From positions 1 through 56,614 of the forward strand of contig SHYV01000001.1 of the NCBI GenBank assembly GCA_009692605.1: 56,614 nt of DNA. The letters are read 5' to 3'. Below, in pieces: positions 1,687-20,654 of the stretch. The position numbers and the translations under genes were made by a program. The notes below the pieces were generated by a model that was given only the letters and a program-made list of their open reading frames with translations, did no database searches and was not told the origin of the DNA. This DNA is from Myxococcales bacterium. GTDB taxonomy: Bacteria; Myxococcota_A; UBA796; SXON01. The first letter of the stretch is position 1; each line of letters starts with the position of its first letter.

Positions 1687-1687
1687 G

Positions 1688-2392: not shown

Positions 2393-3648
2393 AACAGCTC
2401 ACACGTGAACGGCAGCGTCGAGGCGTCGCCGTAGTCGTTCCAGTACCCGACCGCGCCGAAGTTGGTGCCGATGTTGTCTTCCCCGCCGGAGTCGTTGGGC
2501 TCACCCGAATACCAAGCGGAGTAGGTGAGCGGTGAGCCGTCGACCCAGACCCAGGTCCCTTCGGAGTCGCGGTCGTTGAGCCCGATCCAAGAGGCGCCGC
2601 CGAAGTAGCTGTAGTAGGCCGTGGTGCTGACGCCGAAGTTCTCGGTGGCGTCATTCATGATCACCAGCTGCTCGCCGAACGCGGCGCAGATGTCGCGCGC
2701 GGTGGTCCACGACACGTAGTTGGTGCAATAGTCGTAATTGCCCTCCGCGTAGCAGTTGTAGCACTCGCGGAGCTCGTCCACGCTGCCATCGCAGTCGTTG
2801 TCCGCTCCGTCACAGGACTCCGGGCTGCCAGGAAACGTGGCGGCGACACCGTCGTCGCAGTCTCCATCGCAGAAGGTGTAGCCGTCGCCATCGGCGTCGG
2901 TGTCCTCGCTGGTGAGCGCATTGCAGTCGTTGTCGATGCCGTCAACGCACACCTCGACGTTGCCGAAGTAGCGGGCAGCGTCGGTGTCGTCGCAGTCCCC
3001 GCGGCAGGCGGACACCCCGTCGGCGTCGGCGTCGAAGCCCTCGTCGATCTCGCCGTCGCAGTCGTTGTCCTGCTCGTCGCACTCCTCAGGGTGGTTGGGC
3101 GCCCGGTCGGGGTCGGTGTCGTCGCAGTCCCCGCTGCACGCCGCCACGCCGTCTCCGTCGGCGTCGAAGTCCTCGTCCACCGCTCCATCGCAGTCGTTGT
3201 CCACTCCATCGCAGGGGTCGGGCGCGCCGGCATGGGTCGTCTCGTCCTCATCATCGCAGTCAAAACAGCCGTTTACGCCATCTCCGTCCCCATCTGCGAC
3301 GTCGTCGAGCGCGCCGGAGCAGTCATTGTCGAGGTCGTCGCCGCAGATCTCATCCGCGAAGGGGTTCACGGCTGCGTTGCCGTCGTCACAGTCGGCCTGC
3401 GGGCCCGGGCAGGTCAGGGTGCTGTCCCCGTCCATATCGAAATCTTCGTCGACAGCGTCATCACAGTCGTCGTCCTCGCCGTTGCAGACCTCGGTCGAAC
3501 CCGGAAACACGAGCGTATTGGAGTCGTTGCAGTCCTGATCGGCGTTCCAGCCGTCGCGGTCGGCGTCCGGGCTGCCGGAGTCGTCAGGGGGCCTGGAACA
3601 GGAGATCAGCGAGGGGATCAGCAAAGCGATCAGTGAGACGATGAGCAT
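2389..3648 (-). CDS. Secreted lipoprotein with six Cys/Asp-rich MopE-type putative metal-binding repeats and a C-terminal C-type lectin domain
   Basis: ATG at 3648 gives the lipoprotein signal MLIVSLIALLIPSLISC, 11 nt downstream of the kinase stop. Six repeats end in a DNDCDG-like core. The C-terminus reads WIGLNDRDSEGTWVWVDGSPLTYSAWYSGEPND...YWND (CTLD with EPN and WND motifs). Confidence 0.8.
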   Translation of the reverse strand: MLIVSLIALLIPSLISCSRPPDDSGSPDADRDGWNADQDCNDSNTLVFPGSTEVCNGEDDDCDDAVDEDFDMDGDSTLTCPGPQADCDDGNAAVNPFADEICGDDLDNDCSGALDDVADGDGDGVNGCFDCDDEDETTHAGAPDPCDGVDNDCDGAVDEDFDADGDGVAACSGDCDDTDPDRAPNHPEECDEQDNDCDGEIDEGFDADADGVSACRGDCDDTDAARYFGNVEVCVDGIDNDCNALTSEDTDADGDGYTFCDGDCDDGVAATFPGSPESCDGADNDCDGSVDELRECYNCYAEGNYDYCTNYVSWTTARDICAAFGEQLVIMNDATENFGVSTTAYYSYFGGASWIGLNDRDSEGTWVWVDGSPLTYSAWYSGEPNDSGGEDNIGTNFGAVGYWNDYGDASTLPFTCELF

Positions 3649-3658
3649 GCATCGGAGC

Positions 3659-6600
3659 CTATCCCTCCTGCGGCCCGGTCCCCCCGATCTCTCTCTCCAA
3701 CCCTCGCAGGCCCAGCCGCTCCGCCTCCGTGCGCACCTGCTCGAGCACATGGGCGATGTCCTCTCCACGCCGGTGGGCAAGCCGAGCCAGGAACAGCCGC
3801 CCCATCAGCGCAGTCTCGGCATCCCCCACCTGCTTGCAGGCGGCGACCGCACGGTTGAGCTCGAGCTCGGCGCCGCCCTCGGCCCGAAGCGCCCGCAAGT
3901 AGCAGAGGTAGACGTCGTTCATGGCGACGAACCGGCCAAGGCCGCTGGTTCGCGCGATCTCGCGGCTCTCTTCGAAGGCCGTAAAAGCGCGTCCGTCGTC
4001 GCCGAGCCGCATCCACGCATCGCCGATATTATGTAGGTTTACAGCCTCTCCCTGACGATATCCGAGCCCGGCGCGAACCTCGAGGGCCTTTCGGAACGCA
4101 TCAAGAGCGTCGTGGTAGCTCCCGCGCTGGAACGCCGCGAGCCCGAGGTTGTTGAGGATTCGCCCTTGAAGGATGCGGTCCTTTGCGGCCTCCGCGAGGG
4201 GCAGAGCGGCGCGCAACAGGGCCTCGGCGGTGTCCATCTCCCCCCGCCGAAGCGCCGCCACGGCCTGACCGACGTCGACGCGGGCGGCAAGAGAGGCGTC
4301 GTCCCCCGCCGCGACGAGACCCTCCGCGTACCGCTGCTGGGCCTCCTCGGGCTTCCCTTCCTGAAGGGCGATCGCGGCGAGCGCCTCAAGCGCATCCACG
4401 ACACGCGAGCGCTGCTCAGGCCCCGGCCCGCTGCTCCCCCCGGCGCCGCCCCCCCCGGCGAACGCCCGAGCGGCGAGCGTCTCCAGCGCGCTCTCCAAAT
4501 GCATGCGCGCCGTGCCCGTCCGCCCTTGAGCGTGGTGCAGTTTCCCCAGCGCCAGCATGGCCCGCGCCTCCACCTCGGGCGGCCCGATCTCGCCCGCGAT
4601 GTCCAACGCGACCTCCAGGTGCGCCAGCGTCCGCGGTCGTCCGAGCAACAAGCTGAGCTCGCCGGCCAAGAGGTGCAGGCTGGCCTCCAACATCGGGTCC
4701 TTCTCGGTCCGGGGGCCCCTCTCCAGCCAAGCGAGCGCACGCTGTAGGCACTCCAACGCCCGATCGCTGCGCTCGGCATGATGCTCAAGCTCCGCCACAC
4801 GAAGCAAGGAAGCCGCCGCGTCACGAATCCGCCCGCCGGCGTGCGCATGCGTCGCCCAGGCCTCGCCCATCGCGTCAAGGCGACCGGCGTACTGGCGCTC
4901 CATCCCAGAGGCTACCAATCGATGGTATTCGCGGCGCTGCACGGCGAGGATCCCGCGGAGCACCGCCTCCCAGATCAGCACGGAGCGAAAGGCGTATTGA
5001 GTGCCCGCCACCGGCGACTCCGGCGCGATCAGGCCGCCGCGCACAAGCTCCCCGACGATCGGAGTCGGGTCCTCGGCGCCGAGCGCCGCCCCGAGCAGGG
5101 CCGCCGAGAAGTCGAACCCGATGACCGCCGCCACCTGCAGCGCACCGCGCGCACCGGGCTCCAGCGCGTCAATGCGCGCGTCCACCAGGCCCTGCAGCGT
5201 ATCCGGCAGGCCGGGATCGAGGTGCGGGTCTTTCAGCCTCGCCGTAGAGCCCTCGTACCAAATGCGCCCGCCCTGACGAAGCGCCTTCAGGATCTCTTCC
5301 AGGTAAAGGGGATTTCCCTCCGCCGTCCGGAGCAGCAGCCGGGTGAGGTCGGGGCCAATCGCCGTAGCGCCGAGCAGCGCGCTCGCGAACTGGCCAGCCT
5401 GCTCAGGCGGCAGCGGGGCAAGCCGCACCGGGACGAGGCCGGAAAATCGGGCGCCATCCTCGTCAGTGCGCCACGAGGCAAGGAGCATGACCGGCTGGCC
5501 GACGCACACGCGCAGGAGATGGGCAAAGAGCTCGGCCTCGGCATCATCGAGATGCTGCACGTCTTCGAGCATGAGCATCACCGGTCCCTCCCTGCAGATC
5601 CCGGCGATGAGGTGAGCGCACGCCGAAAAAATCGCCTCACGCGGCGGAGGCGGGCGCCGGTGCGGGGCCCGGCGAGACGGCCCGGCCGCCGCAGCCTTCG
5701 GTGGCCCCAGCTCGAACTGGAACAGCGCCGAAATCACCGCAGACTCTGCGCCATCCAGGCCAAGCCCACCAAGCCGGGTCAGCCGCTCGGCCGTAACGGC
5801 CGCGGAGGCGCCATCCCGGATGCCAAGAATGTCGGCGAGGAGGTCGCGTGTCGCCGAGAAGGGCCTCGTGGAGAAGGGAGCCGCGCGTGCGTGGAAGTTA
5901 AGCAGGCTGCGCCGCTGCGCGAGGTCGCGCAGCTCCGCAAAGAAGCGGCTCTTTCCGACGCCCGCCTCCCCAACCACGCAGAGGCTGGTGCCAAGCCCAT
6001 CCCGAAGGCGGGCGATGGCGTCGCGCATCACCTCCAGCTCGTCGGCCCGGCGCAACCATCCCCCGCTGCTCCCACGCCCCCCCGCCCGACGCCCCCCCGC
6101 GAGCACAAAGGTGCGCTGCATCGCCCGGCCCCCCTTGCGACGTAGGGCCGGTCCCGGCTCGAACGGGTACCGGTCCCCGGCGAGCGCCGCGACCTTCTCA
6201 CTCACCAGCGTGGTCCCCGGCTCCGCTGCCCAGGCCAGCCGCTGCGGCATCTTGAGCGTGTCCCCATGCGCCGCGTAGCGGTAGCGGTTGCCGATCGGGC
6301 GCGCCACCGTGAGGTCCCCGACATGCACGGCGATGGCGAACTCGACGGCGAGCCCCTTCTTGCGCTGGCGCTCGGCCAGCCGGTGGAGCTCGCCCGCGCA
6401 GATCAACGCGCGGTCGAGGTCGTCCCCCAACGAACGCGGAAGACCGAAGAACACTCGCAGCGTGTCGTCATCGTAACGATCGGCCACCCCGCCCAACCGA
6501 ACAACGAGCTCCCGCACCCCGCGCAGCATCCGAATGTGGATGCGCGCGATGTCCTCCGACTCGGCGTTCACCGAGTGGTCGGTCAGGCCATTGGCCTCGG

Positions 6601-7756
6601 CGGTCAGGACCACGATCGACCGATGCTCGCCCGACGGGGTGCTTCGGAACGCAGGGGTCTCCTGATGGCTGACCGCGGTGTCGAGTATGGACATCGCCGA
6701 CCGGTCCGGCTCGACGCCGGTGTGCATCGCGTCCAGATCCGCGACCAGCTGCCGAAGGCCGGCGTCCATCCTTCCCCCGAGCGCCTCATTCGGGAACAAG
6801 TCCTTCATCAGGGCGGCGATCTGCGCTCCGCCCGCACGTGCGGCGTGCCGGTACTGGAACGCGCGCAGGTCCTCATCCAGCTCCGTGCCGGTCGGGTAGC
6901 GGGCGTTGACGTCCAGCGCCAGCGCCCGATGAACGATGGCGACGAGGTCGTCGGGCACGTCGGGGTTGAGGGCCTGAAGGTCCGGGAGCACCCCCGAGGT
7001 CAAGGCCCGAAGCTTGTCCTCAGGGGTGCCTTCGTAGAGCCGCCGGCCGGCGAGCATCTCATACAGCACGATTCCAACCGCGTAGAGATCGGATCGGCCG
7101 TCGAGGCGCTCGCCATTCGCTTGCTCGGGCGACATGTAAGCGAACTTCCCGCCGCGGGGTGGGTCGGCAGCCGCCGAAACGCCCACGTGCTGGGTCGCCA
7201 GAGAATGGGGGTCCACCCCCTCGGTCTCGGGCGTGGCGGCGAGCCGGGCGATCCCGAAATCGACCAGCTTGACCTCTCCCTCGAAGCTGACCATCACGTT
7301 GTGGGGGCTGACGTCGCGATGGACGATCTGCAGCGGAACGCCCTCGGCGGTGCGCCGGGAGTGCGCATAGGCGAGCCCGCGGGAGATCGCGGCGCCGATC
7401 GCGACGGCGACCGCGACAGGCATTCGCCGCTCATCCCGCCGCAGCGCCCGGAGCACGTGGGTGAGGTCCGCCCCGTGGATGAACTCCATCGCGAGGTAGG
7501 GATCGTCGTCGACCTTCCCGAGCTCGAAGACCTGCACGATGTTGGGATGGGTCAGGGCGACCGAGAGCTTGGCTTCGTGGATGAACAGGCTGACGAAGCG
7601 CGGGTTGCGGGCCAGATCGGGGAGAATCCGCTTGATCACCAGCCGCTTCTCAAACCCCTCCAGACCGACACTTCGTGCCAGAAAAACCTCAGCCATGCCC
7701 CCTTGGGCAAGCGGCTCCAAAAGCTGGTAACGGCCAAACGGCCGCGGAAATTCCAT
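3659..7756 (-). CDS. Multidomain Ser/Thr protein kinase (Hanks kinase, cyclase-homology-like domain, P-loop AAA/STAND ATPase, TPR repeats)
   Basis: Kinase motifs GGMAEVFLA, HRDVSPHN, DFG and SPE. A class III cyclase-like block starts at SIVVLTAEANG. P-loop GEAGVGKSRF. The C-terminal third has TPR-like repeats. ATG at 7756. Confidence 0.9.
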   Translation of the reverse strand: MEFPRPFGRYQLLEPLAQGGMAEVFLARSVGLEGFEKRLVIKRILPDLARNPRFVSLFIHEAKLSVALTHPNIVQVFELGKVDDDPYLAMEFIHGADLTHVLRALRRDERRMPVAVAVAIGAAISRGLAYAHSRRTAEGVPLQIVHRDVSPHNVMVSFEGEVKLVDFGIARLAATPETEGVDPHSLATQHVGVSAAADPPRGGKFAYMSPEQANGERLDGRSDLYAVGIVLYEMLAGRRLYEGTPEDKLRALTSGVLPDLQALNPDVPDDLVAIVHRALALDVNARYPTGTELDEDLRAFQYRHAARAGGAQIAALMKDLFPNEALGGRMDAGLRQLVADLDAMHTGVEPDRSAMSILDTAVSHQETPAFRSTPSGEHRSIVVLTAEANGLTDHSVNAESEDIARIHIRMLRGVRELVVRLGGVADRYDDDTLRVFFGLPRSLGDDLDRALICAGELHRLAERQRKKGLAVEFAIAVHVGDLTVARPIGNRYRYAAHGDTLKMPQRLAWAAEPGTTLVSEKVAALAGDRYPFEPGPALRRKGGRAMQRTFVLAGGRRAGGRGSSGGWLRRADELEVMRDAIARLRDGLGTSLCVVGEAGVGKSRFFAELRDLAQRRSLLNFHARAAPFSTRPFSATRDLLADILGIRDGASAAVTAERLTRLGGLGLDGAESAVISALFQFELGPPKAAAAGPSRRAPHRRPPPPREAIFSACAHLIAGICREGPVMLMLEDVQHLDDAEAELFAHLLRVCVGQPVMLLASWRTDEDGARFSGLVPVRLAPLPPEQAGQFASALLGATAIGPDLTRLLLRTAEGNPLYLEEILKALRQGGRIWYEGSTARLKDPHLDPGLPDTLQGLVDARIDALEPGARGALQVAAVIGFDFSAALLGAALGAEDPTPIVGELVRGGLIAPESPVAGTQYAFRSVLIWEAVLRGILAVQRREYHRLVASGMERQYAGRLDAMGEAWATHAHAGGRIRDAAASLLRVAELEHHAERSDRALECLQRALAWLERGPRTEKDPMLEASLHLLAGELSLLLGRPRTLAHLEVALDIAGEIGPPEVEARAMLALGKLHHAQGRTGTARMHLESALETLAARAFAGGGGAGGSSGPGPEQRSRVVDALEALAAIALQEGKPEEAQQRYAEGLVAAGDDASLAARVDVGQAVAALRRGEMDTAEALLRAALPLAEAAKDRILQGRILNNLGLAAFQRGSYHDALDAFRKALEVRAGLGYRQGEAVNLHNIGDAWMRLGDDGRAFTAFEESREIARTSGLGRFVAMNDVYLCYLRALRAEGGAELELNRAVAACKQVGDAETALMGRLFLARLAHRRGEDIAHVLEQVRTEAERLGLRGLEREIGGTGPQEG

Positions 7757-7820
7757 CGCGGTTTTTTGTATGCTGCGCCGTCGCCTGAGTCACGCGGCGA
7801 GCGGGCTGGATGGGTGGGAG

Positions 7821-9023
7821 TCACGCGCGCGATTCGATCGGGATGGCGGCCGGGAGGGCGGCCGGGAGGGCGGCCAGCAGCCCCGCCGCCAACATCGCCA
7901 GCCCAGCGCCAACCCCGAGCGCGACCGCCGGGCCGGCGAAGCCCCACAGGCCCCCAACCAGCAGCGACGCCGGCAGCGCCATCGCCCCGGTGACGACGCC
8001 GTACCAACCGTAGGCCGTGCCGCGCAGAGCCGCCGGCACCACGTCGCGAACCAACGCCTTCTCCACCGGTTCGGTCAGGCCAAAATAAGCCCCGTAGGCC
8101 CCGAACAGCGCCCACGCCTGCCAAGACGCCGTCGCGACCCCGAAGAGCAGGTAGACGCAGCCATAGACCACCCAGCCGGCGATGATCGTGGTTCGGCGAG
8201 GCAGGGCGTCACCGAGCCAGCCGCCAAACGCGGACCACCCCACCTTGGACACATGGAAAAAGCTCCAGAGCAACGGGATGCTGGCATCTGCCACGCCGAG
8301 ATCCCGGGCGCGGAGCAAAAGGAACGCATCCGACGAATTGCCAAGCCCGAACAGGGCGAACACACCAAGCAGCCGCCAGAACCCAGCCGGGAGCGCGACC
8401 GGCCCGGCGAGAACATCGCCGGTTGGGCCAACCGATGGCCCACCGGGACCAGGGTTAGTTGGGGGACGCTCCTTCAGCATCGCGGTGGTGGCGAACGCGA
8501 GGACTCCGGGCACGGCCGCGCACAGGAACACCGTGCGCAGGGACATACCGCTGGCCAAGAGCGCGGCGGCGATCAGCGGGCCCACGACCGCTCCCGCGTG
8601 ATCCATGCCGCGATGGAAGCCAAACGCACGCGCCGCCTGACCTTCTTCGGCGGCGTCGGCGATCAGGGCGTCCCGCGGCGCCCCACGCACCCCCTTGCCC
8701 ACCCGGTCGGTCAGCCGGATCAGCAGGACGTGCCATGGCGCCGCTGCGAAGGCCATGAGCGGCCGAACCGCACCAGCGAGCCCGTACCCAACCATGATCA
8801 GCGGCTTGCGCGCGCCCACCCGGTCCGAGAGCCGACCCGCGATGAGCTTCAGCGCGCTGGAGACGACGTCGGCCGCTCCTTCCACGACGCCGAGGAACAC
8901 GGGGGTCACACCCACCGTGCCGATCAGGAACAGGGGCAGCAGCGGGAAGATCATCTCCGAGCCGGCGTCGGTGAAGAAGCTGGTGAGGCCGAGGAGGATC
9001 ACCGTCGGAGGGAGCGGGCGCAC
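7821..9023 (-). CDS. MFS transporter
   Basis: About 12 hydrophobic segments and an MFS motif-A-like loop GRLSDRVGARKP. GTG start at 9023. Confidence 0.8.
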   Translation of the reverse strand: MRPLPPTVILLGLTSFFTDAGSEMIFPLLPLFLIGTVGVTPVFLGVVEGAADVVSSALKLIAGRLSDRVGARKPLIMVGYGLAGAVRPLMAFAAAPWHVLLIRLTDRVGKGVRGAPRDALIADAAEEGQAARAFGFHRGMDHAGAVVGPLIAAALLASGMSLRTVFLCAAVPGVLAFATTAMLKERPPTNPGPGGPSVGPTGDVLAGPVALPAGFWRLLGVFALFGLGNSSDAFLLLRARDLGVADASIPLLWSFFHVSKVGWSAFGGWLGDALPRRTTIIAGWVVYGCVYLLFGVATASWQAWALFGAYGAYFGLTEPVEKALVRDVVPAALRGTAYGWYGVVTGAMALPASLLVGGLWGFAGPAVALGVGAGLAMLAAGLLAALPAALPAAIPIESRA

Positions 9024-9207
9024 ACTCGGCAGGTATTCAAATCGGACGAAGCGGGCTTGACGTCCGCCGGAGTGACCACCGTCCGCCGGGGTTTCGTCGG
9101 ACGACCGTCAGCGGCGAATCAAGCCGAGATCCACAAGCCATAAACCCGCCTTCCTATCGCATAGTCTGTCAGAGCCCAGCCACGTCTGCCGTGGCACCCG
9201 CCTTGCG

Positions 9208-9849
9208 ATGGACCGGCAACATCCATGGTGCCCCGTGCTCCTCGTCCGCCTTGTCCTCTTGATGATGTCCCCCATCACGCGCCCTGCGGGTGACGAGGAG
9301 TCCGCCCCCCCCGACGGCGAGCCGATGGTCTTGGCCGTTCGGACGGCGTCGGAGCTTAAAAACACCCTGCCCCGGCTCGATGATCTCGATCGGCTCGGCG
9401 TAGGCCTGATCGCCGTCGACCCGCGGGTCCGCGCCCGCATCCCCGACATGCTCGCGCTCGGGCGGGCAGCGCGTCTCAGGGGGGTGGGGGTGGTCGTGGG
9501 GCGGGGGGGAGGGCGGGGGGGAGGGCCGAGCGCAGGTTGGGCGGAGGGGAGCACGGGTGAGGCTCGGCTGCGGGTGGCGGGGCTGCTCTTGTCCCGGCAC
9601 CCCGTGCTGACCCTCGCAGACCTCGATGATCCGCTGATCGTCGCGCTCGCGCTGGTGCGCCGGCAGCTGATCGATGGGACGCGCCTGATGCCATGGGCAC
9701 CGCCGGGGGGGCTGGTTTTCGAGCGCCTGAGCCGGGGACGCCGCCTGTTCGTCGCGCTGGACGGCGGGGGGGACGGCGGGGGGGACGGCGGGGGGCGCGA
9801 CAGCCTCGTGGTCGAAGGGGCGGGGTACTGCGTGTGGTGGGTGGAGTAG
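9208..9849 (+). CDS. Hypothetical protein with internal Gly-rich tracts (first gene of the kinase cassette)
   Basis: A 213-codon ORF with strong G/C third-position bias. It lies on the same strand as the kinase gene, 54 nt upstream of it. I recognised no family motif. The start is uncertain and no obvious SD is present. Confidence 0.45.
   Translation: MDRQHPWCPVLLVRLVLLMMSPITRPAGDEESAPPDGEPMVLAVRTASELKNTLPRLDDLDRLGVGLIAVDPRVRARIPDMLALGRAARLRGVGVVVGRGGGRGGGPSAGWAEGSTGEARLRVAGLLLSRHPVLTLADLDDPLIVALALVRRQLIDGTRLMPWAPPGGLVFERLSRGRRLFVALDGGGDGGGDGGGRDSLVVEGAGYCVWWVE
9479..9525 (+). repeat. Dense G-tract run (G-quadruplex-capable) inside the CDS
   Basis: G-runs of 6, 5, 2, 4, 7, 3, 7 and 3 separated by 1-4 nt, encoding GVGVVVGRGGGRGGG. 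Confidence 0.6.
9760..9795 (+). repeat. Perfect 12-bp tandem repeat (GACGGCGGGGGG) x3
   Basis: Three identical in-frame units encoding (DGGG)3. Confidence 0.9.
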
Positions 9850-9903
9850 GGTCGGGCCCAAGGGGAGCGCCGCTGACTCACCGAGACGCGCTACACTCCC
9901 GCG

Positions 9904-11838
9904 ATGATCACCGGTCTGGATCACCGCGTCCTCCACGAATACCCTTGGCCGATCGCCGACGCCTGGAAGCGCGTGCTCAACGCCCGTCCCGGCGCAGACC
10001 GGCTGCGCCAACAGCGTGTGTGCATCGGCGTGATCGTCCGCTGGCTCTGCGCGGTCACGCTCGCCGAGTACCGGCTGGGGCCGACGGACCCGAAGACGGA
10101 TCGATTCGTGGACGAGAAGCTGCGCGAGTTCAGCGACGGCTCCTGGCGCCTCATACTGAACAACCTCACCGCGCTGATCAAGACGCGGCGCCGTCGTTTC
10201 TGCGACGATCTCGTCTTTGGGATGCGCGACGACGCCGGCAACGAGGGGCCGCTTCAGGTCGCGCTGATCCAGGCGATCGCGGCTCGGAACAACGAAGCGC
10301 ACACCAAGGACAGCACCCCATCTGGCGAGTTCGCGCACTGCCAACGGTTTCAGGAAGCGCTCACTCAGGTCCTCAGCGAGGCCGCGTTTCTGGCCTCGTA
10401 CCGAGCGTTCACCGCCGACGTCAGCGCCGGCACGAACGGGCGTCACACCGGGCGCGGCCAGTGCCTGGCCGGGGATGGGCTGTCCGAAGACGTGGACATG
10501 TCGGAGCCGCTGCTGAAGGACGCCGTGTACTGGATCCGGCCCGACGCTCGCAGCGCGCTGCTCCTCCACCCCTACGTCGCCGCCGACCGGGACGGCAACG
10601 GGGACGTCGCGGTCTTGGTGTGCGACCGCGTAGTAGGCGGCACGATCTCGCTGAGCTCCCCCTCGCATCCGAACCGCGACAAGGAGTTCTCCTTACACGC
10701 CGCGAAGTGGGTTGAGATCGACGAGCGGCTGGGCGGGCTCCGGTACCCACGTCCCCTCCCAGAAGCGCGCGTTTTGGAGGTGCCCGCGGCAGCCCTCGGG
10801 CCCGCAGCTCAGCCCCCCGCTGGCCCCGCGCCGACGTCGATCGACAACCCCCTCACCACGCTCTTCGAGATCTTGGAGCCCCTCGGGAGCGGCGGCATGG
10901 CGCGCGTCTTCCGAGCTCGCGATCGGCGGACAGGCGCGGAGTGCGCGGTGAAGGTAATACACCACGATCTGGTCAGCAGCCCGGTGGCGATCGAGCGCTT
11001 TCAGCGAGAGTATCGGGATCTCTCGGCCATCGCCTCGGATCACGTCGTGCCGGTCATGGCCGAGGGCACGCTCGCGGACGGACGACGCTGGATCCAGATG
11101 GGCCTGATGTGCGGGAGCCTGCAACAGAGCGTTCAAGCAGGAGGACAACCGTTGGCGGTGCTCCTGCCATGGGCCGAGCAGATGCTCCGTGCGGTCGTCG
11201 CTCTGCACGCCGCGAACATCATCCACCGGGACATCAAGCCCTCGAACTTCCTCGTCGACAATCAAGGCCGCGTGCGGCTCAGCGACCTAGGCGTCGCATT
11301 TCGACCCGGGGACCCGTCGCTCACGCTCACCGGAGAAGGGGTCGGCACCGCCCGGTACATGGCGCCCGAGACGCGGCAGAGCGGCCTGTGCACCCCCCGG
11401 AGCGACCTCTGGTCGTTGGCGCTGACGCTCCATGAGCTGCACACCGGCGTCTGGGTCCCTCACCCGGGCGAAGGGGTGAACGGCGTGTTCGGCGCGTTCC
11501 TGCGTTGCCTTGGCGCACCGAGCCCGACCGCGCGACCCAGTGACGCGCAGGCGACGAACATGCTGGCGCAGGCCCTGCGCGAGGACCTCAAAGGGGCCGT
11601 GCCGACGGCGTCCCCGGCGGCGTCCCCGCCATCGTCGTCGACCGAGAGGGCGCCGAACGTGGCTGCCGTGAGCCTCGCGATCCCGGCCGCCGCCGCGACC
11701 GGGGCCCTGGCTGCAGGGGTGATCGCGCTCGCGGTGCTCGGGAGCGCTGGAGCCGGACACGGCGGGAAGGCCTTAGGCCGCGCGCTTGGACAGGCGGCTC
11801 TGGCGGGAGCGCTTCGGGGGAAGAGGGGGAGGAGGTAG
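9904..11838 (+). CDS. Hanks-type Ser/Thr kinase with an unassigned ~300-aa N-terminal domain and a C-terminal hydrophobic tail anchor
   Basis: Kinase motifs LGSGGMARVF, AVKVI, HRDIKPSN, DLG (a DFG variant) and YMAPE occupy the second half. The C-terminal Ala-rich helix is AIPAAAATGALAAGVIALAVLG. The N-terminal half (HEYPWPIADAWKRVL...) matches no motif I recognise. Confidence 0.85.
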   Translation: MITGLDHRVLHEYPWPIADAWKRVLNARPGADRLRQQRVCIGVIVRWLCAVTLAEYRLGPTDPKTDRFVDEKLREFSDGSWRLILNNLTALIKTRRRRFCDDLVFGMRDDAGNEGPLQVALIQAIAARNNEAHTKDSTPSGEFAHCQRFQEALTQVLSEAAFLASYRAFTADVSAGTNGRHTGRGQCLAGDGLSEDVDMSEPLLKDAVYWIRPDARSALLLHPYVAADRDGNGDVAVLVCDRVVGGTISLSSPSHPNRDKEFSLHAAKWVEIDERLGGLRYPRPLPEARVLEVPAAALGPAAQPPAGPAPTSIDNPLTTLFEILEPLGSGGMARVFRARDRRTGAECAVKVIHHDLVSSPVAIERFQREYRDLSAIASDHVVPVMAEGTLADGRRWIQMGLMCGSLQQSVQAGGQPLAVLLPWAEQMLRAVVALHAANIIHRDIKPSNFLVDNQGRVRLSDLGVAFRPGDPSLTLTGEGVGTARYMAPETRQSGLCTPRSDLWSLALTLHELHTGVWVPHPGEGVNGVFGAFLRCLGAPSPTARPSDAQATNMLAQALREDLKGAVPTASPAASPPSSSTERAPNVAAVSLAIPAAAATGALAAGVIALAVLGSAGAGHGGKALGRALGQAALAGALRGKRGRR

Positions 11839-11842
11839 CCCC

Positions 11843-12988
11843 ATGAGCGCCTACTACGACCGCACCCTGCCCGAACCCCTGTTCCGACACGTCCGGCCCG
11901 GCGGCGGCCTTGATTGGCTCCCCGGCTGGCTGCGCTCCCCAAAGGCCATCGAACGCCGGGCCCGCGTCGAGCTCCGCCGCAACGACGACGATCACAAGCA
12001 CGGCGCCCTCATGATCTACATGGGCCGGAGCCGGCCGCTCGTCGTCATCGGCGGCGCGCTCGGCGAGGTCCGTATCGATGCCGCAGACGCCTACAAGCAC
12101 CAGCGCCCTGGCATTTTCGGTCCGCGCGCCGCCTCGGCGGTGCCCGGCCTGAAGACCGAGCTGCAGACCTACCTGAACGAGTGCCGGGTTGGCGACGACT
12201 TCCTTGAAGGGGAGGGCGCGGTCCAGGGTGCCTTCGCCCGAAGGTACACTCTCGATCACGTCGCCGGCGAGCCGCTGATCGTGGACACCGAGGTGCGATT
12301 GGGGTTCGTGAAGTCGGGAGGGTTGACGGGCACCGCGCACCGCAACGCACTGCACGATCGCCTGCGGCGCGAACACCCGACGTTCGTCGGGACCAAGTCA
12401 ACGCCGACCAAGCTGGATGCGGCCGCGATCCTGCCGTCCGGCGATCTGGGGGTAATCGAACTGAAGAAGGAGAAGGGGGACCTCGCCGAGGCGGTCCGGC
12501 AGGTCGCAGCGCACGTTTTCGCGTTTCCAATTCTCGGAGCAACCCTGATCGGCGGCGTCGACAAGCTGGTCGACCAGAAGGTGGAGAGCGGATTTTTGCC
12601 GGCCGGCCGTGCACCCCTACAAAGAAGCCGGCCGATTCCCATCATCGCGGCCCCGGACTCGGATCCGCGCTGGGCGGACCGTTGGCGCCGGGATTGCGCG
12701 AATTCGGGAGCACCATCGAGGAGGTTTGGACCCGGCTACTTCCCACGTCCAAGGTCCGCTATCGTATGGTCGACAATCAGCCATTGCTCCGATCCACCCC
12801 GGAGATCGCCGAGCGGTACGGGGAGCTTGGGTCGTAAAGTTCCATTTCAGCGCGCCTCACCGATCGGATCTGGGCGGCCGCTCGTCCTGAGCAAGGCGAG
12901 TTTCGTGCGCCTCGCGTGTTCGCGAGGTCGACGTTCGCGTTTAGCTCGACGGGGCTACCAACCGACAACCGAGCCGGCCACCGGCTAG
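11843..12988 (+). CDS. PD-(D/E)xK nuclease-like protein (3' end doubtful, possible frameshift)
   Basis: The ATG at 11843 lies 4 nt after the kinase stop (TAG 11836-11838). The core reads KLDAAAILPSGDLGVIELKKEKGD...RQVAAH, which fits D-x13-E-x-K plus a following Q-helix. After about 12690 the annotated frame becomes R/S/P-rich. A second frame reads protein-like up to TAA 12835-12837. Confidence 0.6.
   Translation: MSAYYDRTLPEPLFRHVRPGGGLDWLPGWLRSPKAIERRARVELRRNDDDHKHGALMIYMGRSRPLVVIGGALGEVRIDAADAYKHQRPGIFGPRAASAVPGLKTELQTYLNECRVGDDFLEGEGAVQGAFARRYTLDHVAGEPLIVDTEVRLGFVKSGGLTGTAHRNALHDRLRREHPTFVGTKSTPTKLDAAAILPSGDLGVIELKKEKGDLAEAVRQVAAHVFAFPILGATLIGGVDKLVDQKVESGFLPAGRAPLQRSRPIPIIAAPDSDPRWADRWRRDCANSGAPSRRFGPGYFPRPRSAIVWSTISHCSDPPRRSPSGTGSLGRKVPFQRASPIGSGRPLVLSKASFVRLACSRGRRSRLARRGYQPTTEPATG
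12910..12927 (+). terminator. Weak hairpin, possible terminator of the kinase cassette
   Basis: CCTCGCG-TGTT-CGCGAGG (7-bp GC stem, 4-nt loop) followed by a poor T-tract (TCGACGTTCGCGTTT). It is only meaningful if the upstream gene really ends at 12837. Confidence 0.2.
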
Positions 12989-15522: not shown

Positions 15523-16422
15523 ATGACCGTTTTTCTCCAGCAGCTCATCAACGGCCTGTCGCTCGGGGCGATCTACGCCCTGATCGCGCTTGGCTACACC
15601 ATGGTCTACGGCACCCTGCAGCTCATCAACTTCGCGCACAGCGAGGTGTTCATGATGGGGGCTTTCGCGTCGTTGTACCTCGCACGTTGGAGCGGAGCCG
15701 ATCAGGACCCGACGCTGGTCTCGGTGTGCTTCGTGATCGTGGGCACCATGGCGTTCTGCGCGATCCTCGGGATGGCGATCGAGCGGCTGGCCTACCGGCC
15801 GCTCCGAAAGTCCGGCCGCCTCAACCTGCTGATCACCGCCATCGGCGTGTCGATGCTGCTCCGGAACGGCACCCTCATCGCAGCGGGCCCGCTCGCGAGC
15901 TTTCCGACGTTGCTCCCGCAGACCCAATGGCAGCTCGCCGAGGGCCTCAGCCTGCGCAGCATGGACGTCATCACCCTGTCCGTCACGCTCGTGCTCATGG
16001 TCGCGCTGCACCACATCGTCGAGCGCACCCAGATGGGCCGCGCGATGCGCGCCGTGAGCCACAGCCGTGACGCCGCCGCGCTGATGGGAATCCCAGTGGA
16101 TCGGGTGATCGCCTTCACCTTCGCGCTGGGCTCCTGTCTGGCTGGGGCTGCCGCGTTCCTCCGAGCCGTCGACATGCACAAGATCGACCCCGAAATGGGG
16201 ACGAACATGGGGCTCAAGGCGTTCGTCGCCGCCGTCGTCGGCGGGATCGGGTCCATCCCGGGCGCTGTCGTGGGGGCCATCCTGCTCGGCCTGTCCGAGA
16301 CCTTCGTCAGCGGGTACCTGACGAGCACCTACCGCGACGCCATCGCCTTCTGCCTCCTCATCGTCATCCTGCTGGTGCGTCCTGCCGGCCTGCTCGGCAA
16401 ACACGCCCCGGAGAAGGTCTGA
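15523..16422 (+). CDS. livH: Branched-chain amino acid ABC transporter permease
   Basis: The N-terminus FLQQLINGLSLGAIYALIALGYTMVYG is typical of LivH. Polytopic membrane protein. Confidence 0.9.
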   Translation: MTVFLQQLINGLSLGAIYALIALGYTMVYGTLQLINFAHSEVFMMGAFASLYLARWSGADQDPTLVSVCFVIVGTMAFCAILGMAIERLAYRPLRKSGRLNLLITAIGVSMLLRNGTLIAAGPLASFPTLLPQTQWQLAEGLSLRSMDVITLSVTLVLMVALHHIVERTQMGRAMRAVSHSRDAAALMGIPVDRVIAFTFALGSCLAGAAAFLRAVDMHKIDPEMGTNMGLKAFVAAVVGGIGSIPGAVVGAILLGLSETFVSGYLTSTYRDAIAFCLLIVILLVRPAGLLGKHAPEKV

Positions 16423-17372
16423 TGACCCGCGGCGCGATGATCGGCTGGGCCGCGATGGCGGCCGGCATCGCCATCGTCTGGGCAATCCAGATCTACGCCG
16501 TGCCCTGGACCGACCCCTACCTGACCGACATCATCGTCCGCGTGGGCATGAGCCTGCTGGCGGTGATGGGGCTCGCGCTGGTCCTCGGGTTCACCGGGCA
16601 GTTCTCGCTCGGCCACGCGGGCTTCATGGCGGTCGGGGCCTACACGGCGGGGGCGCTGGTGCACTACACGCACGTCCACCCCGTGGTGGGCATCCTCGCG
16701 GGGGCGCTCGCTGCCGCGTTCGTCGGCGTGCTCGTCGGGCTGCCTAGCCTCCGACTGACCGGCGATTACCTCGCCGTCGTGACCTTAGGCTTCAACGGGA
16801 TCATCATCGTCCTCATCCAGAACGCGGAGTGGCTGGGCGGGGCGAAGGGGCTCATCGGGCTGCCCACGTTCACCAACTTCGGCTGGACCTTCACGTTCGT
16901 GATCATCGGGGGCGTCGCGATCCGCAACGTCATCGCCAGCGCCCAGGGGCGGGTGTTCGAAGCCGTTCGCGACAACGAGATCGCCACCCGGTCGCTGGGC
17001 ATCGACACCACCCGGGCCAAGGTGACCGCCTTCGTCTTCGGTGCCTTCTGGGCCGGGATCGCCGGAGGACTGGTGGCGTTCCACCGCGGGTCGATCTTCC
17101 CGACCCAGTTCCAATACGATCGCTCGATCGAGCTGGTCACCATGGTCGTCCTCGGGGGCACCGGCTCGCTCTCGGGGCCGCTCATCGCATCATCGGTGCT
17201 GACCGCCTTACCCGAAATCCTCCGGCCGATCGCTCAATACCGCATGGTGATCTACGCGCTGCTGCTCATCGGAATGATGATCCTGCGCCCCTCGGGCCTG
17301 CTCGGCGCCCGCGAGCTGACCGAGGTGGTCGCCGGCTGGTACCGCGCGCTGCGCCGCCATCGGGCCGCCTGA
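16422..17372 (+). CDS. livM: Branched-chain amino acid ABC transporter permease
   Basis: The ATG overlaps the livH stop by 1 nt. LivM-type motifs GQFSLGHAGFMAVGAY and LGGAKG. Confidence 0.9.
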   Translation: MTRGAMIGWAAMAAGIAIVWAIQIYAVPWTDPYLTDIIVRVGMSLLAVMGLALVLGFTGQFSLGHAGFMAVGAYTAGALVHYTHVHPVVGILAGALAAAFVGVLVGLPSLRLTGDYLAVVTLGFNGIIIVLIQNAEWLGGAKGLIGLPTFTNFGWTFTFVIIGGVAIRNVIASAQGRVFEAVRDNEIATRSLGIDTTRAKVTAFVFGAFWAGIAGGLVAFHRGSIFPTQFQYDRSIELVTMVVLGGTGSLSGPLIASSVLTALPEILRPIAQYRMVIYALLLIGMMILRPSGLLGARELTEVVAGWYRALRRHRAA

Positions 17373-17376
17373 GACC

Positions 17377-18405
17377 CTACGGCCGGAGGGCCGCGTCAAT
17401 CGCGCGCCGAGCCTCTTCCTGCATCGCCCTGAGCACAGGGTCGTCCGGGATCCCGGGGTCGAGATCGATGTGGCGGTCGAGCCCGGTCGCGACGCTCCCG
17501 TCGGGCGCGAACGTGAGCCGTAGCTCACCGAGTCGCATCGTCTGGACGAACGAAAACACCCAGACGGCGCGGTTGACGTAGAAGGGCTCGACGTACTGGT
17601 TGTGGTCGCCGCCGTCGATGACCGCGATGATCCGGGGAACGCGACGAGCCAGCATCTTCGCGGCGTCCGTCGCATTGTATTGCAGAAGGATGATCCCGTC
17701 GATCGCCCGCTCGGCCTGCTGCTGGAGGAAAGGCAGGGCATCCTCCGGCGGGTGCACGGTGTAGCCGGCATGATCGGAGGGGGTGGCCTCGGGCGCGGCG
17801 ATGCCGGTCACCAGAAACCAACCGTCGGCGGTCCGGAGCTCGATCGAGCGCCGGATGCCGGGCCCCTCGATGTTCGCAGACACCATCGGAAGCCGGGCGA
17901 GATCCTCGGGGTCCACAGCCGACAAGCCCGCCAGATCGCGCGGCGTCACGTTCAGCGCGTCCCACCCTCCCTGGATGAACCCCTTCGCTGCAGTGCGGTC
18001 CATGACCGCGAGCTGCGGCAACGGCATGTTCTGGAATCCGACCGCGTCGGTGAGCCACTCGCCAGCGTTCACCAGCAACGAGTACGGGGAGGAGCGGGCA
18101 GCGGCCTGAACGTAACTTTCGGTCCGCGCGAGCGAGCCGCGCGGGCGGTGTGGGCAGCCGCAGGTCTCCATCGAGCCGCGCTGCTCGCTGCCGTAGAAGA
18201 TCACCAGATCGGCGGGTGAGGTCGACACCCGCGAGGCGAGCGGGCCGTCGATGGCAAGCTCGCTGTAAAGCCCCTTGTCTGCGGCCGGCGTGGGCGTCAG
18301 CCCATCGGAAGCTACGCTCGCGGGGAGGTCCGACAATGGCGGCGGACCGGATCGCACGCCATGATGGCCGGCGCAGGCGCCCGTGCCCATCGCCAGAAGC
18401 GCCAT
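17377..18405 (-). CDS. Lipoprotein, 5'-nucleotidase/metallophosphoesterase-like (functional assignment weak)
   Basis: The ATG at 18405 (MALLAMGTGACAG signal) lies downstream of the ETF-QO stop, and the longer 18666 start would overlap that gene. The ETCGC motif and overall layout resemble deltaproteobacterial 5'-nucleotidase-like proteins. Confidence 0.5.
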   Translation of the reverse strand: MALLAMGTGACAGHHGVRSGPPPLSDLPASVASDGLTPTPAADKGLYSELAIDGPLASRVSTSPADLVIFYGSEQRGSMETCGCPHRPRGSLARTESYVQAAARSSPYSLLVNAGEWLTDAVGFQNMPLPQLAVMDRTAAKGFIQGGWDALNVTPRDLAGLSAVDPEDLARLPMVSANIEGPGIRRSIELRTADGWFLVTGIAAPEATPSDHAGYTVHPPEDALPFLQQQAERAIDGIILLQYNATDAAKMLARRVPRIIAVIDGGDHNQYVEPFYVNRAVWVFSFVQTMRLGELRLTFAPDGSVATGLDRHIDLDPGIPDDPVLRAMQEEARRAIDAALRP

Positions 18406-18455
18406 GGCCGGTCCACCGCGCCACGGCCGCTCGAAGCCACCGGAAGGACGCGGCT

Positions 18456-20150
18456 TCAGAGGATCCCGTACTCCGGACCGCCCCCGCCCTCCGGCGGCAC
18501 CCAGGTGATGATCTGGTAGGGATCGCGGATGTCGCAGGTCTTGCAGTGCACGCAATTGGAGAAGTCCACCTGCATTTCGAGCCGCTGGGTCTTCTCGTTG
18601 GGGAGCATGTTGTAGACCTGCGCCGGACAGAACCGGGTGCACGGATTGCCGTACTCCTCTGCGCATGTGGTCGCGCAGATCTCCCGGTCGACGATGTGCA
18701 GGTGGGCCGGCTGCTGCTCCTCGTGCTTGGTACCCGAGTGGTACACGTCGGTCAGCTTGTCGACGATGTAGGTGCCGTCGTAGGTGAGGTCGTCGCGCGA
18801 CGGGTAAGGGTGATGGCCTCGGTAGGCTGCGTTCTTGCGCATCCCCTCGAAGTCAGCGTGGAACGGGTTGATCTCCTTTCCCGGACCGAACACGAGCGAC
18901 ATCCCGGTCGCCGCGAGACCGCCCACGGTCCCCTTCTCGAACCCCGCGTGGAAGTTCTTGGCGGGCTCCATCTCGGTGCGGATCCAGCTCGCGTCCACCT
19001 TCTCCTTGTACAGGCGCAGCACCTCCGCCCGGGCGTCGCCCCGCTTGAGCGCCACGAACGCCGTCTCCGCCGCGAGCATGCCAGACTTCATGGACAGGTG
19101 GATGCCCTTCAGGCGCATCGGGTTCAGGAAGCTCGCCGAATCGCCGACGATCATCGCGCCGTCTGCGTAGAGCGTGGGGATCGAGGCCCACCCGCCACAG
19201 GTCACCGCCTTCGCGCCGTACTTCACGACCTTGCCCCCAGCGAGCTTCTTGCGCATCCAGGGATGGTTCTTCAGCTTCTGAAGCAGGTAGTGGGCGTCCA
19301 TCGCCGGGTCCTGCGCGTCGAGCCCGACGAGCAGACCCAGAGCGTACCGGTCCCCGGCGAGCGAGTAGAGGAACGCCCCCCCGAACGTGTTCAGATCGAG
19401 CGGGAAGCCGAGCGTGAGCACCACCTCGCCGGTCTTCACAGCCCCCGGCGGCATCTCGATGATCTCCTTCACGCCGATCTCGTAGGCGATGGGCTGGCTC
19501 GCCTTGTCGAGACCGTGCTTCTGCACGAGCTGCCGGGTGAGGGTGCCGCGCGGACCCTCGCCGAGGATCGTGACCTTCGCGGTCAGGTCGTAGCCTGGCT
19601 CAAAGTTGCCCTTGGGCTGCCCGTCGGGGCCGATGCCCTTGTCGCCGGAGCGGACGCCGACCACTGCACCGTTCTCGCCCCAGAGGAGCTGGGTGCCGGC
19701 GAACCCCGAGAAGATCGTGAGGCCCCGCGACTCCGCCTGAGCGGCCAGCCACTTCTGGAACTTCGCGATGGAGATGATCGGCAGCCCATGATCGCCGAGC
19801 CCAGGCGGCATCATCGGCGCAGGAACCGCGAACTTCTCGGTCATCACCAAAAAGGTCTCGTCCTCGACGTAGCGCTCGACGAACGACGGATCCAATTTCT
19901 TCCAGTCGGGGATCAGCTCGTCGAGGGCCTGCGGGTCAAGCACGGCCCCAGAGATCGCGTGCGCGCCGATCTCCGAGCCTTTCTCCATCAGGCCGATGGT
20001 CAACTCCTCCAGCTTCGGGCCGGGCTCAGTCCCGGCATCGACAGCGGCGTTATGGGCCGCCACAAGGTCGAGCAGGCGGATGGAGCCCGCGAGACAACCG
20101 GGTCCGCCTCCCACAAACAGGACATCAACCAACATTTCATCGCGTAGCAT
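18456..20150 (-). CDS. Electron transfer flavoprotein-ubiquinone oxidoreductase (ETF-QO)
   Basis: FAD fingerprint VLFVGGGPGCLAG and a C-terminal 4Fe-4S ferredoxin-like cysteine cluster (CTRFCPAQVY...NCVHCKTCDI). Confidence 0.9.
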   Translation of the reverse strand: MLRDEMLVDVLFVGGGPGCLAGSIRLLDLVAAHNAAVDAGTEPGPKLEELTIGLMEKGSEIGAHAISGAVLDPQALDELIPDWKKLDPSFVERYVEDETFLVMTEKFAVPAPMMPPGLGDHGLPIISIAKFQKWLAAQAESRGLTIFSGFAGTQLLWGENGAVVGVRSGDKGIGPDGQPKGNFEPGYDLTAKVTILGEGPRGTLTRQLVQKHGLDKASQPIAYEIGVKEIIEMPPGAVKTGEVVLTLGFPLDLNTFGGAFLYSLAGDRYALGLLVGLDAQDPAMDAHYLLQKLKNHPWMRKKLAGGKVVKYGAKAVTCGGWASIPTLYADGAMIVGDSASFLNPMRLKGIHLSMKSGMLAAETAFVALKRGDARAEVLRLYKEKVDASWIRTEMEPAKNFHAGFEKGTVGGLAATGMSLVFGPGKEINPFHADFEGMRKNAAYRGHHPYPSRDDLTYDGTYIVDKLTDVYHSGTKHEEQQPAHLHIVDREICATTCAEEYGNPCTRFCPAQVYNMLPNEKTQRLEMQVDFSNCVHCKTCDIRDPYQIITWVPPEGGGGPEYGIL

Positions 20151-20219
20151 CGAGGGCCTCGCCGGCGGGGGTGTCCCCCGAATGAGCTGCGGAGGAGCCC
20201 CGCAACAAGGGTGTATTCA

Positions 20220-20615: not shown

Positions 20616-20654
20616 GGAGGAGAGGTATCACCGCCACTCCCTCACGGCGGCCCG

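Follow-up and report, generated by a model that had tools for sequence, protein, structure and literature searches.

The genes at the locus

A run of three closely spaced open reading frames (ORFs) lies on the forward strand of a contig from a Myxococcales bacterium (SHYV01000001.1, assembly GCA_009692605.1); the stretch of DNA analysed here, positions 1 to 56,614 of that contig, is referred to throughout as the window. From the bare sequence the run had been proposed to be an undescribed three-gene cassette, in which a protein with glycine tracts (ORF1), a membrane-anchored Hanks-type Ser/Thr kinase and a protein resembling PD-(D/E)xK nucleases (ORF3) would recall the logic of abortive-infection or other defence modules. 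Our analysis leads to a different picture: the third ORF is a chimera formed across a deletion junction, what it retains of a nuclease gene belongs to a family that recurs beside, or fused to, a second nuclease, and the region as a whole is probably the decaying edge of a defence-island-type locus and not a three-gene system.

The three ORFs are present as described, at 9208–9849 (213 aa), 9904–11838 (644 aa) and 11843–12988 (381 aa), with 54 nt between the first two and only 4 nt (CCCC, between the TAG at 11836–11838 and the ATG at 11843) between the kinase gene and ORF3. The G+C content of the window is ~69%, and coding on the + strand is supported for ORF1, for the kinase and for ORF3 as far as ~12600 by the G+C content of third codon positions (GC3) and by the pattern over all three positions (GC1/2/3). 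Almost the same DNA is found on an 8-kb contig, ERZ1305449, on which an opposite-strand 400-aa gene, corresponding in position to the MFS transporter gene next to ORF1 in the window, is followed by genes for 213, 644 and 316 aa, the intergenic gaps again being 54 nt and 4 nt. The features of the region are collected in Table 1; other related loci and proteins are cited by L and P numbers.

Table 1. Features of the region 9208–12988 of the window
Feature	Position	Strand	Basis
ORF1, 213-aa Gly-tract protein	9208–9849	+	GC3>GC1>GC2 pattern fits the + frame
Hanks-type Ser/Thr kinase, intact, 644 aa	9904–11838	+	Pfam Pkinase
Kinase N-terminal domain (aa 1–310): helical aa 1–165, beta-rich aa 167–251	9904–10833	+	
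R128-N129-x3-H133 motif in the kinase N-terminal domain	10285–10302	+	Invariant in six sequences
Protein kinase catalytic domain (aa 321–516)	10864–11451	+	Pfam match
C-terminal hydrophobic, probably transmembrane segment (aa ~591–615), followed by a basic tail	11674–11748	+	
CCCC junction between kinase stop and ORF3 start	11839–11842	+	Presumed deletion scar
ORF3-family gene, 5' part, truncated (283 of 316 codons)	11843–12693	+	Identity to P0001; blastn to L001
ORF3 catalytic motif D192...E206-x-K208...Q220	12416–12502	+	58-sequence alignment
Deletion junction, 3-nt microhomology GGA common to both flanks	12691–12693	+	Overlapping blastn matches to L001
REase-ARP/PDDEXK_13 remnant: last 47–48 codons and stop TAA (12835–12837), out of ORF3 frame	12691–12837	+	
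Lower-GC spacer read through by the mechanical ORF, non-coding	12838–12988	+	GC3 signal lost; no homologue aligns

The third ORF is a chimera across a deletion junction

The 381-aa ORF had been taken for a gene ending at 12988, a reading that the codon statistics do not bear out: the frame-specific coding signal ends near 12600, after which the codon-position G+C signal follows another frame until ~12840 and is then lost. Homologues of ORF3 were sought in two sets, 5.8 billion proteins (word search) and 1.84 billion representative proteins (profile search). The word search yielded four, of 310–316 aa, all of which align just to residues 1–283 of the window ORF; over these residues the 316-aa protein from ERZ1305449 (P0001) is 100% identical to it, and from residue 284 the two are unrelated.

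What, then, lies beyond codon 283? By blastn, window 11840–12693 corresponds to 9998–10851 of locus L001 (the 5' part of the ORF3 gene there), and window 12691–12838 to 11770–11917 of the same locus, which is the 3' end of the neighbouring gene, encoding a member of the REase-ARP family. Read in its own frame, this second stretch translates as LREFGSTIEEVW...AERYGELGS, with 93.6% protein identity to the C-terminus of the L001 REase (a tblastn search also matches), and a hidden Markov model built from REase-ARP relatives matches the window solely at model positions 266–326. Gene arithmetic (951+969−4−995) gives a deleted length of 921 bp, a loss that took the final 33 codons from ORF3 and, from the 322-codon REase-ARP gene, ~275 codons with its whole catalytic core (E138, D164 and E182-x-K184). 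At the matching place on ERZ1305449, with the same MFS–213–644 layout, the pair is intact, with 316 and 322 aa.

The third ORF of the window is a chimera of a truncated ORF3 and an out-of-frame REase-ARP remnant. What had been described as a coupled nuclease-fold effector of the kinase is, in the window, a truncated pseudogene with its partner almost wholly deleted; an intact REase-ARP (PF22558) or PDDEXK_13 (PF20796) domain was not found in the window, from which the catalytic E...D...E-x-K residues are gone. The 283 codons that remain are free of substitutions with respect to the intact copy, so that the deletion would seem to be very recent, or else a polymorphism within one population. As a deletion that separates two otherwise identical strains, it would represent decay in progress and illustrate how fast such modules turn over. 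There is also a caution here, in that ORFs called over deletion junctions in high-GC genomes can pass for intact genes.

Another decayed copy of ORF3 is found in L009 (CALQBK020000004.1, 8980–9540), where codons 1–64 remain together with an inverted piece corresponding to aa 60–109. This contig and that of L002/L008 (CAYWGD010000130.1) are high-GC contigs labelled as Bifidobacterium breve and Enterobacteriaceae metagenome-assembled genomes, and look mis-binned.

A family of NucS-like nucleases

The part of ORF3 that survives in the window includes the residues that had prompted its comparison with restriction endonucleases, D192-x13-E206-L-K208 followed by Q220, and these prove to be conserved among homologues: an alignment of 58 family members shows no variation at Y59, E124, D148, E206 or Q220, and conservation of 90% or more at D192, K208 and E150. 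A profile of the family matches Pyrococcus NucS (2vld) with E=4.7e-4, such that D192...E206-x-K208...Q220 falls on the NucS catalytic block, the similarity amounting to ~40 residues and being confined to the catalytic motif. No family-level model in Pfam, PADLOC or NCBIfam matches the ORF3 family (the 58 members were each compared with Pfam); in particular, the Pfam NucS model has no match among the 58, and the DUF4263/SduA models of PADLOC and Pfam have none to ORF3 or its homologues. The AlphaFold2 model of ORF3 (predicted local distance difference test score, pLDDT, 72.6; predicted template modelling score, pTM, 0.69) had SduA, EndoMS, NucS, Card1 and Can2 as its top Foldseek matches in the PDB, all of them weak (best E=0.02, TM ~0.2) and none significant. 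At the level of motif and profile, ORF3 is a member of a PD-(D/E)xK nuclease family that has not been named.

With clusters counted at 50% identity, the profile search of representative proteins gave 208 ORF3-family clusters at E<=1e-3, a number that falls to 51 if E<=1e-30 is required; most of the proteins have ~300–340 aa. A narrower alignment retrieved two loci in a scan of 185,579 species genomes, two in metagenomes and none in viral sequences, and no ORF3-family match was found in phage or plasmid records. One large protein, P0082 (5443 aa), has 15 separate stretches matching positions 116–153 of the family profile, which may be a repeat or an artefact of composition.

The ORF3 proteins of L001 (10001–10951) and L016 (8001–8951) are only 55% identical, with differences along the whole protein, whereas the kinase, DUF4258, radical-SAM and REase-ARP proteins of the same two loci are 88–94% identical. 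This comparison of sequences points to allelic replacement of one subunit, or to diversifying selection upon it; divergence to 55% in a pair of loci otherwise at ~90% is a pattern typical of arms-race components.

A recurrent pair of nucleases

We examined nine independent contexts of ORF3-family genes. A REase-ARP gene directly follows, or is fused to, the ORF3-family gene in six of them (ERZ1305449, L001, L016, L002, L014 and the fused L005/P0028). The two genes overlap by 4 nt, and so are translationally coupled, in ERZ1305449, L001, L016 and L002, and are adjacent in L014; in all, three fusions, from distant lineages, were found (P0028; P0093, in which the order is reversed; and P0142, with a strong PDDEXK_13 match of 2e-87). 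The 322-aa gene of ERZ1305449 matches both REase-ARP (PF22558) and PDDEXK_13 (PF20796) in Pfam, and the REase-ARP matches of L001 and of a plasmid homologue have E-values from 2e-30 to 3e-43. Both the ORF3 family and REase-ARP retain complete E...D...E-x-K signatures, and no homology between the two is detectable. By sequence, the REase-ARP profile has no relative among solved structures. The genes downstream of ORF3-family genes in L017 and L018 were considered as possible REase-ARP members and rejected.

In phage and plasmid records REase-ARP has a single match, on a plasmid, and none in phage. The plasmid is Phenylobacterium pA (L013, NZ_CP101284.1, 1–4328), on which the REase-ARP gene lies between genes for a BPTD_3080-family restriction endonuclease, running across the start of the record, and an N6/N4 DNA methylase, unannotated in PLSDB. 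A 556-aa neighbour that might have been an ORF3-family protein turned out to be the C-terminal part of the BPTD_3080-family endonuclease. In the literature on REase-ARP, PF22558, PDDEXK_13, PDC-M51 and BPTD_3080 we found neither experimental characterisation nor a meaning for 'ARP'.

The ORF3 family and REase-ARP make up a two-nuclease module that recurs across divergent lineages. In view of the pairing, the fusions, the conserved signatures, the divergence of ORF3 and the plasmid context, the two proteins may well constitute a hetero-oligomeric, restriction-like DNA endonuclease. The ORF3 family is absent from Pfam, NCBIfam and PADLOC. Its usual partnership with REase-ARP and its pattern of divergence single it out as a tangible candidate for a restriction-like defence module of a new sort.

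The kinase

The kinase core had been described as complete and apparently active, and its elements (GSGGMARVF, AVKVI, HRDIKPSN, DLG and YMAPE) are indeed all present and invariant in the homologues; the Pfam model Pkinase (PF00069) matches aa 321–516 with E=5e-32, above its gathering score. The preceding ~310 aa, which the original prediction had called unassignable, have no assignment in Pfam or NCBIfam, by sequence comparison with the PDB, or by Foldseek. A C-terminal hydrophobic segment is likewise present (Kyte–Doolittle mean of 2.03 for the 19 aa from 595 to 613), in keeping with a membrane helix, and is conserved in four close kinase homologues and in P0168.

Just five full-length kinase relatives came to light, with alignment identities of 87, 83, 82, 62 and 34%. 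Residues R128, N129 and H133 of the N-terminal domain are invariant in all six sequences, including the 34%-identical homologue. This R-N-x3-H arrangement recalls the R-x4-H motif of HEPN domains, and we offer the resemblance as a lead only; no HEPN match for the kinase N-terminus was obtained with Foldseek (PDB and BFVD), in a profile search of PDB sequences or in Pfam scans of all members. In the AlphaFold2 model of the N-terminal domain (pLDDT 60, better over aa 1–200), the beta-rich part gave repeated but weak Foldseek matches to OB-fold proteins (eIF1A, IF1, SSB), none of them significant. To judge from the model, the domain may possibly comprise a helical part bearing R-N-x3-H and an OB-like beta domain.

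Searches with PADLOC models matched the kinase domain to PD-T4-6 (E=1e-48) and mad6 (3e-47), and also to the generic kinase parts of PglW and MkoA. ORF1 and ORF3 have no PADLOC matches, and PADLOC-DB v2 gives no system with all its required components at the window locus. Hanks kinases with this N-terminal domain, private to them, are rare, and in related genomes they adjoin DISARM, Eleos-like and Hhe-like genes.

ORF1 and the flanking genes

ORF1 matches no model in Pfam, PADLOC or NCBIfam. A 213-aa gene is called at its position solely on the near-identical contig ERZ1305449, and tblastn found no homologue in any of the other related loci. ORF1 is probably a real gene, lineage-specific and outside any conserved unit. 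Its glycine tracts have their source in two perfect 12-nt tandem arrays containing G7 runs, at 9499–9526 and 9759–9795 of the window, the units being GGGCGGGGGGGA (2.3 copies) and GGACGGCGGGGG (3.1 copies); such arrays could be slippage-prone or form G-quadruplexes.

The neighbours on either side had been named as an MFS transporter and rlmN, and database matches agree (an MFS-like match to NorA, E=5e-10, and a match to RlmN, E=1e-48). Two genes upstream of the run, at 3659–7756 on the − strand, a 1365-aa protein is encoded which, judged from its translation only, has a kinase-like N-terminus and a long C-terminal region resembling an ATPase followed by TPR repeats. Scans of the region for promoters, terminators, repeats and tRNAs gave nothing informative.

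Relatives of both genes lie in defence islands

The suggestion that the locus follows the logic of abortive infection or defence holds in part: relatives both of the kinase gene and of ORF3 are found in anti-phage defence islands, and in the majority of the related genomes examined the two-nuclease module has such defence genes around it, but the trio as a functional cassette is not upheld. In L010 a complete DISARM core (3796–9970; PADLOC matches to DrmA, 1e-259, DrmB, 1e-70, and DrmC, 3e-31) ends 31 nt before the start of the kinase gene, on the same strand. In L016, PADLOC identifies a PDC-S37/Hhe-like helicase upstream of the kinase. The radical-SAM gene that is translationally coupled to ORF3 in L001 matches PDC-M51A (E=2e-141), and in L018 a JetD gene (Wadjet-type) adjoins the ORF3-family gene. 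To the left, the five close kinase loci have flanks without any nucleotide similarity to one another. Variable flanks and defence neighbours of this kind are hallmarks of defence islands, and four of the five full-length kinase relatives head variable cargo near known or candidate defence genes. Ophion, a defence system with a radical-SAM component, was considered as a match and rejected, its gene set being different.

Some further features of these loci may be recorded. Upstream of the L001 cluster (787–4539, − strand) is a gene for a 1250-aa protein matching LeoBC and LeoA, which appears as an Eleos-type dynamin-like fusion, and downstream of it (15897–20781, − strand) is a McrBC-like pair, DUF2357 with AAA_5 (PDC-M26A). 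A convergent block of four genes lies to the right of the cargo in L001 (11946–15850), L010 (12404–16187), L012 (5755–9646) and L016 (10439–11644), on the − strand in each case; it encodes a TPR protein of ~556 aa and then proteins of ~325, 140–178 and 235 aa, with no Pfam families. The block is 33–63% identical between loci whose kinases are 82–94% identical, forming a second hot spot of divergence, and is absent from the window.

Is there a kinase–nuclease unit?

The kinase gene is found in seven contexts, three of which (the window/ERZ1305449 arrangement, L001 and L016) include the nuclease pair. In L016 the order is kinase, DUF4258, B12-radical-SAM, ORF3, REase-ARP, and L001 has the same order with a metallophosphatase gene (Metallophos) and a gene for 279 aa inserted after the kinase. 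DUF4258 is a toxin family of the RelE/ParE superfamily, of unknown target (PMC11980606). In the remaining four contexts there is no nuclease: L010/L011 and L012 have the kinase and DUF4258 only; L019 has the kinase and a 194-aa gene with no assignment; and in ERZ1426841 a kinase of 62% identity is followed, after 275 nt, by a GT4-conflict/radical-SAM-SPASM fusion and then by AAA_33, Y_phosphatase3, GT2, carbamoyltransferase and His_Phos_1 genes. Upstream of the ERZ1426841 kinase are a divergent NYN-domain gene and vWA/DUF2201 genes, and a possible description of the whole is a nucleotide- or sugar-modifying conflict cluster. Conversely, six of the nine ORF3-family contexts (L002, L005, L006, L014, L017 and L018) have no kinase.

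The trio, whose recurrence in varying genomic contexts had been suggested as a check, was found again only on the near-identical ERZ1305449; ORF1 is absent elsewhere, and kinase and nuclease each occur apart. For the pair of kinase and nuclease the outcome was mixed, with same-strand clusters in L001 and L016 but no nuclease in four of the seven kinase contexts.

The 4-nt gap itself, which had been read as a sign of coupling between kinase and nuclease, looks more like the scar of a deletion. In L001 and L016 it is the radical-SAM gene, and not the kinase gene, to which ORF3 is coupled, and the sequence at that boundary, CCGGAGTGA-GCCC-ATG, may be compared with GGAGGAGGTAG-CCCC-ATG at the kinase–ORF3 junction of the window. 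In L016, L010 and L012 a DUF4258 gene begins ~75 nt after the kinase stop, where L001 has its Metallophos gene. Parsimony across these related loci suggests that the gap was left by an earlier deletion of the DUF4258 and radical-SAM genes. There may nevertheless be a looser link between the kinase and its variable downstream cargo, since all the loci that bear on the question belong to a single narrow clade.

A probable eroding defence-island edge, and other explanations

On balance the region can probably be described as the edge of a defence-island-type locus undergoing decay, in which an intact kinase gene and ORF1 stand beside the dead remnant of a two-nuclease module, and not as a three-gene system. 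ORF1 would be a lineage-specific gene apart from both the kinase and the nuclease remnant. The NucS-like 316-aa protein and the 322-aa REase-ARP protein would, by analogy with two-subunit restriction enzymes, assemble into a hetero-oligomeric DNA endonuclease with one active site in each subunit, of which the NucS-like subunit might be a fast-evolving recognition or interface component. Self-protection or licensing could be provided by the modifiers with which the genes are coupled, namely the B12-radical-SAM protein (L001 and L016) and the DNA methylase (the Phenylobacterium plasmid); alternatively, the nuclease might recognize a structure in DNA, as do NucS and Shedu. First, a deletion of 1.7 kb or more would have removed the genes for the DUF4258 toxin and the radical-SAM protein, bringing ORF3 up against the kinase stop. 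The 921-bp deletion at a microhomology, a very recent event, then truncated both nuclease genes and left the module non-functional in the window. The kinase most probably acts by itself; by analogy with the single-gene defence kinases Stk2 and PD-T4-6, it would sense infection or stress.

Several observations sit uneasily with this explanation. The genes flanking the region in the window are housekeeping and transport genes, with no defence genes among them; the fold of ORF3 finds little support in the structural comparisons described above; and REase-ARP is missing from three of the nine ORF3-family contexts (L006/L007, L017 and L018). The 921-bp deletion is known from an assembled contig and not from reads, and it is parsimony among closely related loci that makes the first indel a deletion here and not an insertion elsewhere. 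Moreover, the kinase gene and the nuclease pair form a single same-strand cluster in the window/ERZ1305449, L001 and L016, three related genomes with different left flanks.

This last point leads to the alternative that fares best, although we think it unlikely: that a modular locus with exchangeable cargo has the kinase as its constant sensor or regulator at the head, the nuclease pair being one of several effectors under its control. The kinase gene is the first of a same-strand run with differing cargo in six kinase contexts; the kinase and the convergent TPR block on the right are common to L001, L016, L010 and L012, which differ in cargo and left flanks; and the N-terminal domain with its R-N-x3-H is conserved down to 34% identity. 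All but two of the contexts are in closely related genomes, however, so that shared ancestry would explain the pattern equally well, and no cargo type recurs with the kinase outside the clade. Beside the distant homologues P0168 and P0175 lie unrelated genes (at a distance of 275 nt in the case of P0168), and no domain assignment backs a sensing function. Were the kinase after all a defence sensor at the head of such a locus, and the nuclease pair a new and widespread (~200 clusters) restriction-like system, a combination to which we give a similarly low probability, its interchangeable effectors would include the DUF4258 toxin, the B12-radical-SAM protein, the nuclease pair and the GT4-conflict cluster, and the NucS-like subunit would be under diversifying selection.

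The proposal with which the analysis began, a single abortive-infection cassette of ORF1, kinase and ORF3 in which the kinase would activate the nuclease, now appears quite improbable. It could draw on the common strand and short gaps, on the repetition of the layout on ERZ1305449, on the clustering of kinase and nuclease pair in L001 and L016 and on the PD-(D/E)xK character of ORF3. Yet ORF1 is absent from all related loci, the kinase and the nuclease family so often occur without one another (in four of seven and six of nine contexts, respectively), and such co-occurrences as there are come from one narrow clade, with kinases 84–94% identical. The short second gap is itself best read as a deletion scar, and the nuclease of the window is truncated and has lost a partner that looks obligate.

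Might the 921-bp deletion be an artefact of assembly or binning, the intact pair being really present? The window is metagenome-assembled, and the intact version occurs in another assembly with a protein identical up to the junction. The sequence shared at the junction is only 3 nt, however, and there is no repeat there that could have caused 921 bp to collapse in assembly; in addition, the flanks are collinear into unique sequence, and ORF3 has decayed independently in L009. An artefact, too, strikes us as improbable.

Lastly, an ordinary housekeeping role, in which the kinase would be just one of many signalling kinases in a high-GC bacterium rich in them, and ORF3 and REase-ARP a NucS-like DNA-repair module, would fit the large kinase-like gene upstream, the RlmN and transporter flanks and the fact that the only significant sequence link of ORF3 is to a repair enzyme, NucS, but is very hard to reconcile with the patchy distribution (four matches in the word search, and two loci in the scan of species genomes), the presence/absence polymorphism between near-identical strains, the divergence of ORF3 to 55% within a cluster that is otherwise 88–94% identical, the DISARM, Eleos-like, Hhe-like, Wadjet-type and PDC neighbours, and the restriction of NucS similarity to the catalytic motif.

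Comparison with known systems

We return, then, to the probable defence-island edge and consider how its components compare with systems already described. The kinase shares its Hanks core with PD-T4-6, Stk2, PglW and MAD6, and its relatives are found next to defence systems. Its match to PD-T4-6 and mad6, however, covers the generic core only and is no better than that to PknB (8e-46, and far below NCBIfam cut-offs); the models of PD-T4-6, PglW and MAD6 contain no counterpart of the N-terminal domain or the C-terminal anchor, and the partner genes of BREX and MADS are absent beside the kinase. With PDC-M51, to whose component A the radical-SAM protein of L001 is related, the resemblance extends no further: that gene is missing from the window, and neither ORF3 nor REase-ARP matches a component of PDC-M51 or any other PADLOC model.

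The deleted partner gene belongs to PF22558/PF20796, PF22558 being defined as 'Restriction Endonuclease associating with ARP'. In the window it is represented by a catalytically empty remnant, unlike the intact members of the family, and on the Phenylobacterium plasmid the REase-ARP gene adjoins a BPTD_3080 gene and a methylase gene, not a gene of the ORF3 family.

Shedu SduA (DUF4263; 8ps5 and 8ti9) provided the best, if weak, Foldseek match to the ORF3 model (8ps5, E=0.02, probability 0.47). In Shedu as in the ORF3 family, the NucS-like core is preceded by an N-terminal region that varies, and the setting is that of defence islands, but Shedu is a single-gene system, whereas the ORF3 family usually needs, or at least keeps, its REase-ARP partner.

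NucS/EndoMS (2vld and 5gke) shares with ORF3 the catalytic order and spacing D...E-x-K...Q, as well as a two-domain build in which the N-terminal half is beta-rich. Homology over the full length, including the N-terminal dimerization and DNA-binding domain, which would mark a member of the NucS family, is not seen in ORF3. The ORF3 family further differs from NucS/EndoMS in its patchy occurrence in variable loci, in its association, by adjacency or fusion, with a second nuclease, and in its strong allelic divergence.

In logic there is a parallel with the heterodimeric type II restriction endonucleases, such as BbvCI and Bpu10I, in which two PD-(D/E)xK subunits, each with its own active site, are encoded side by side. 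The likeness is an analogy only, and there is a contrast in that most of the ORF3-family/REase-ARP loci have no cognate methyltransferase.

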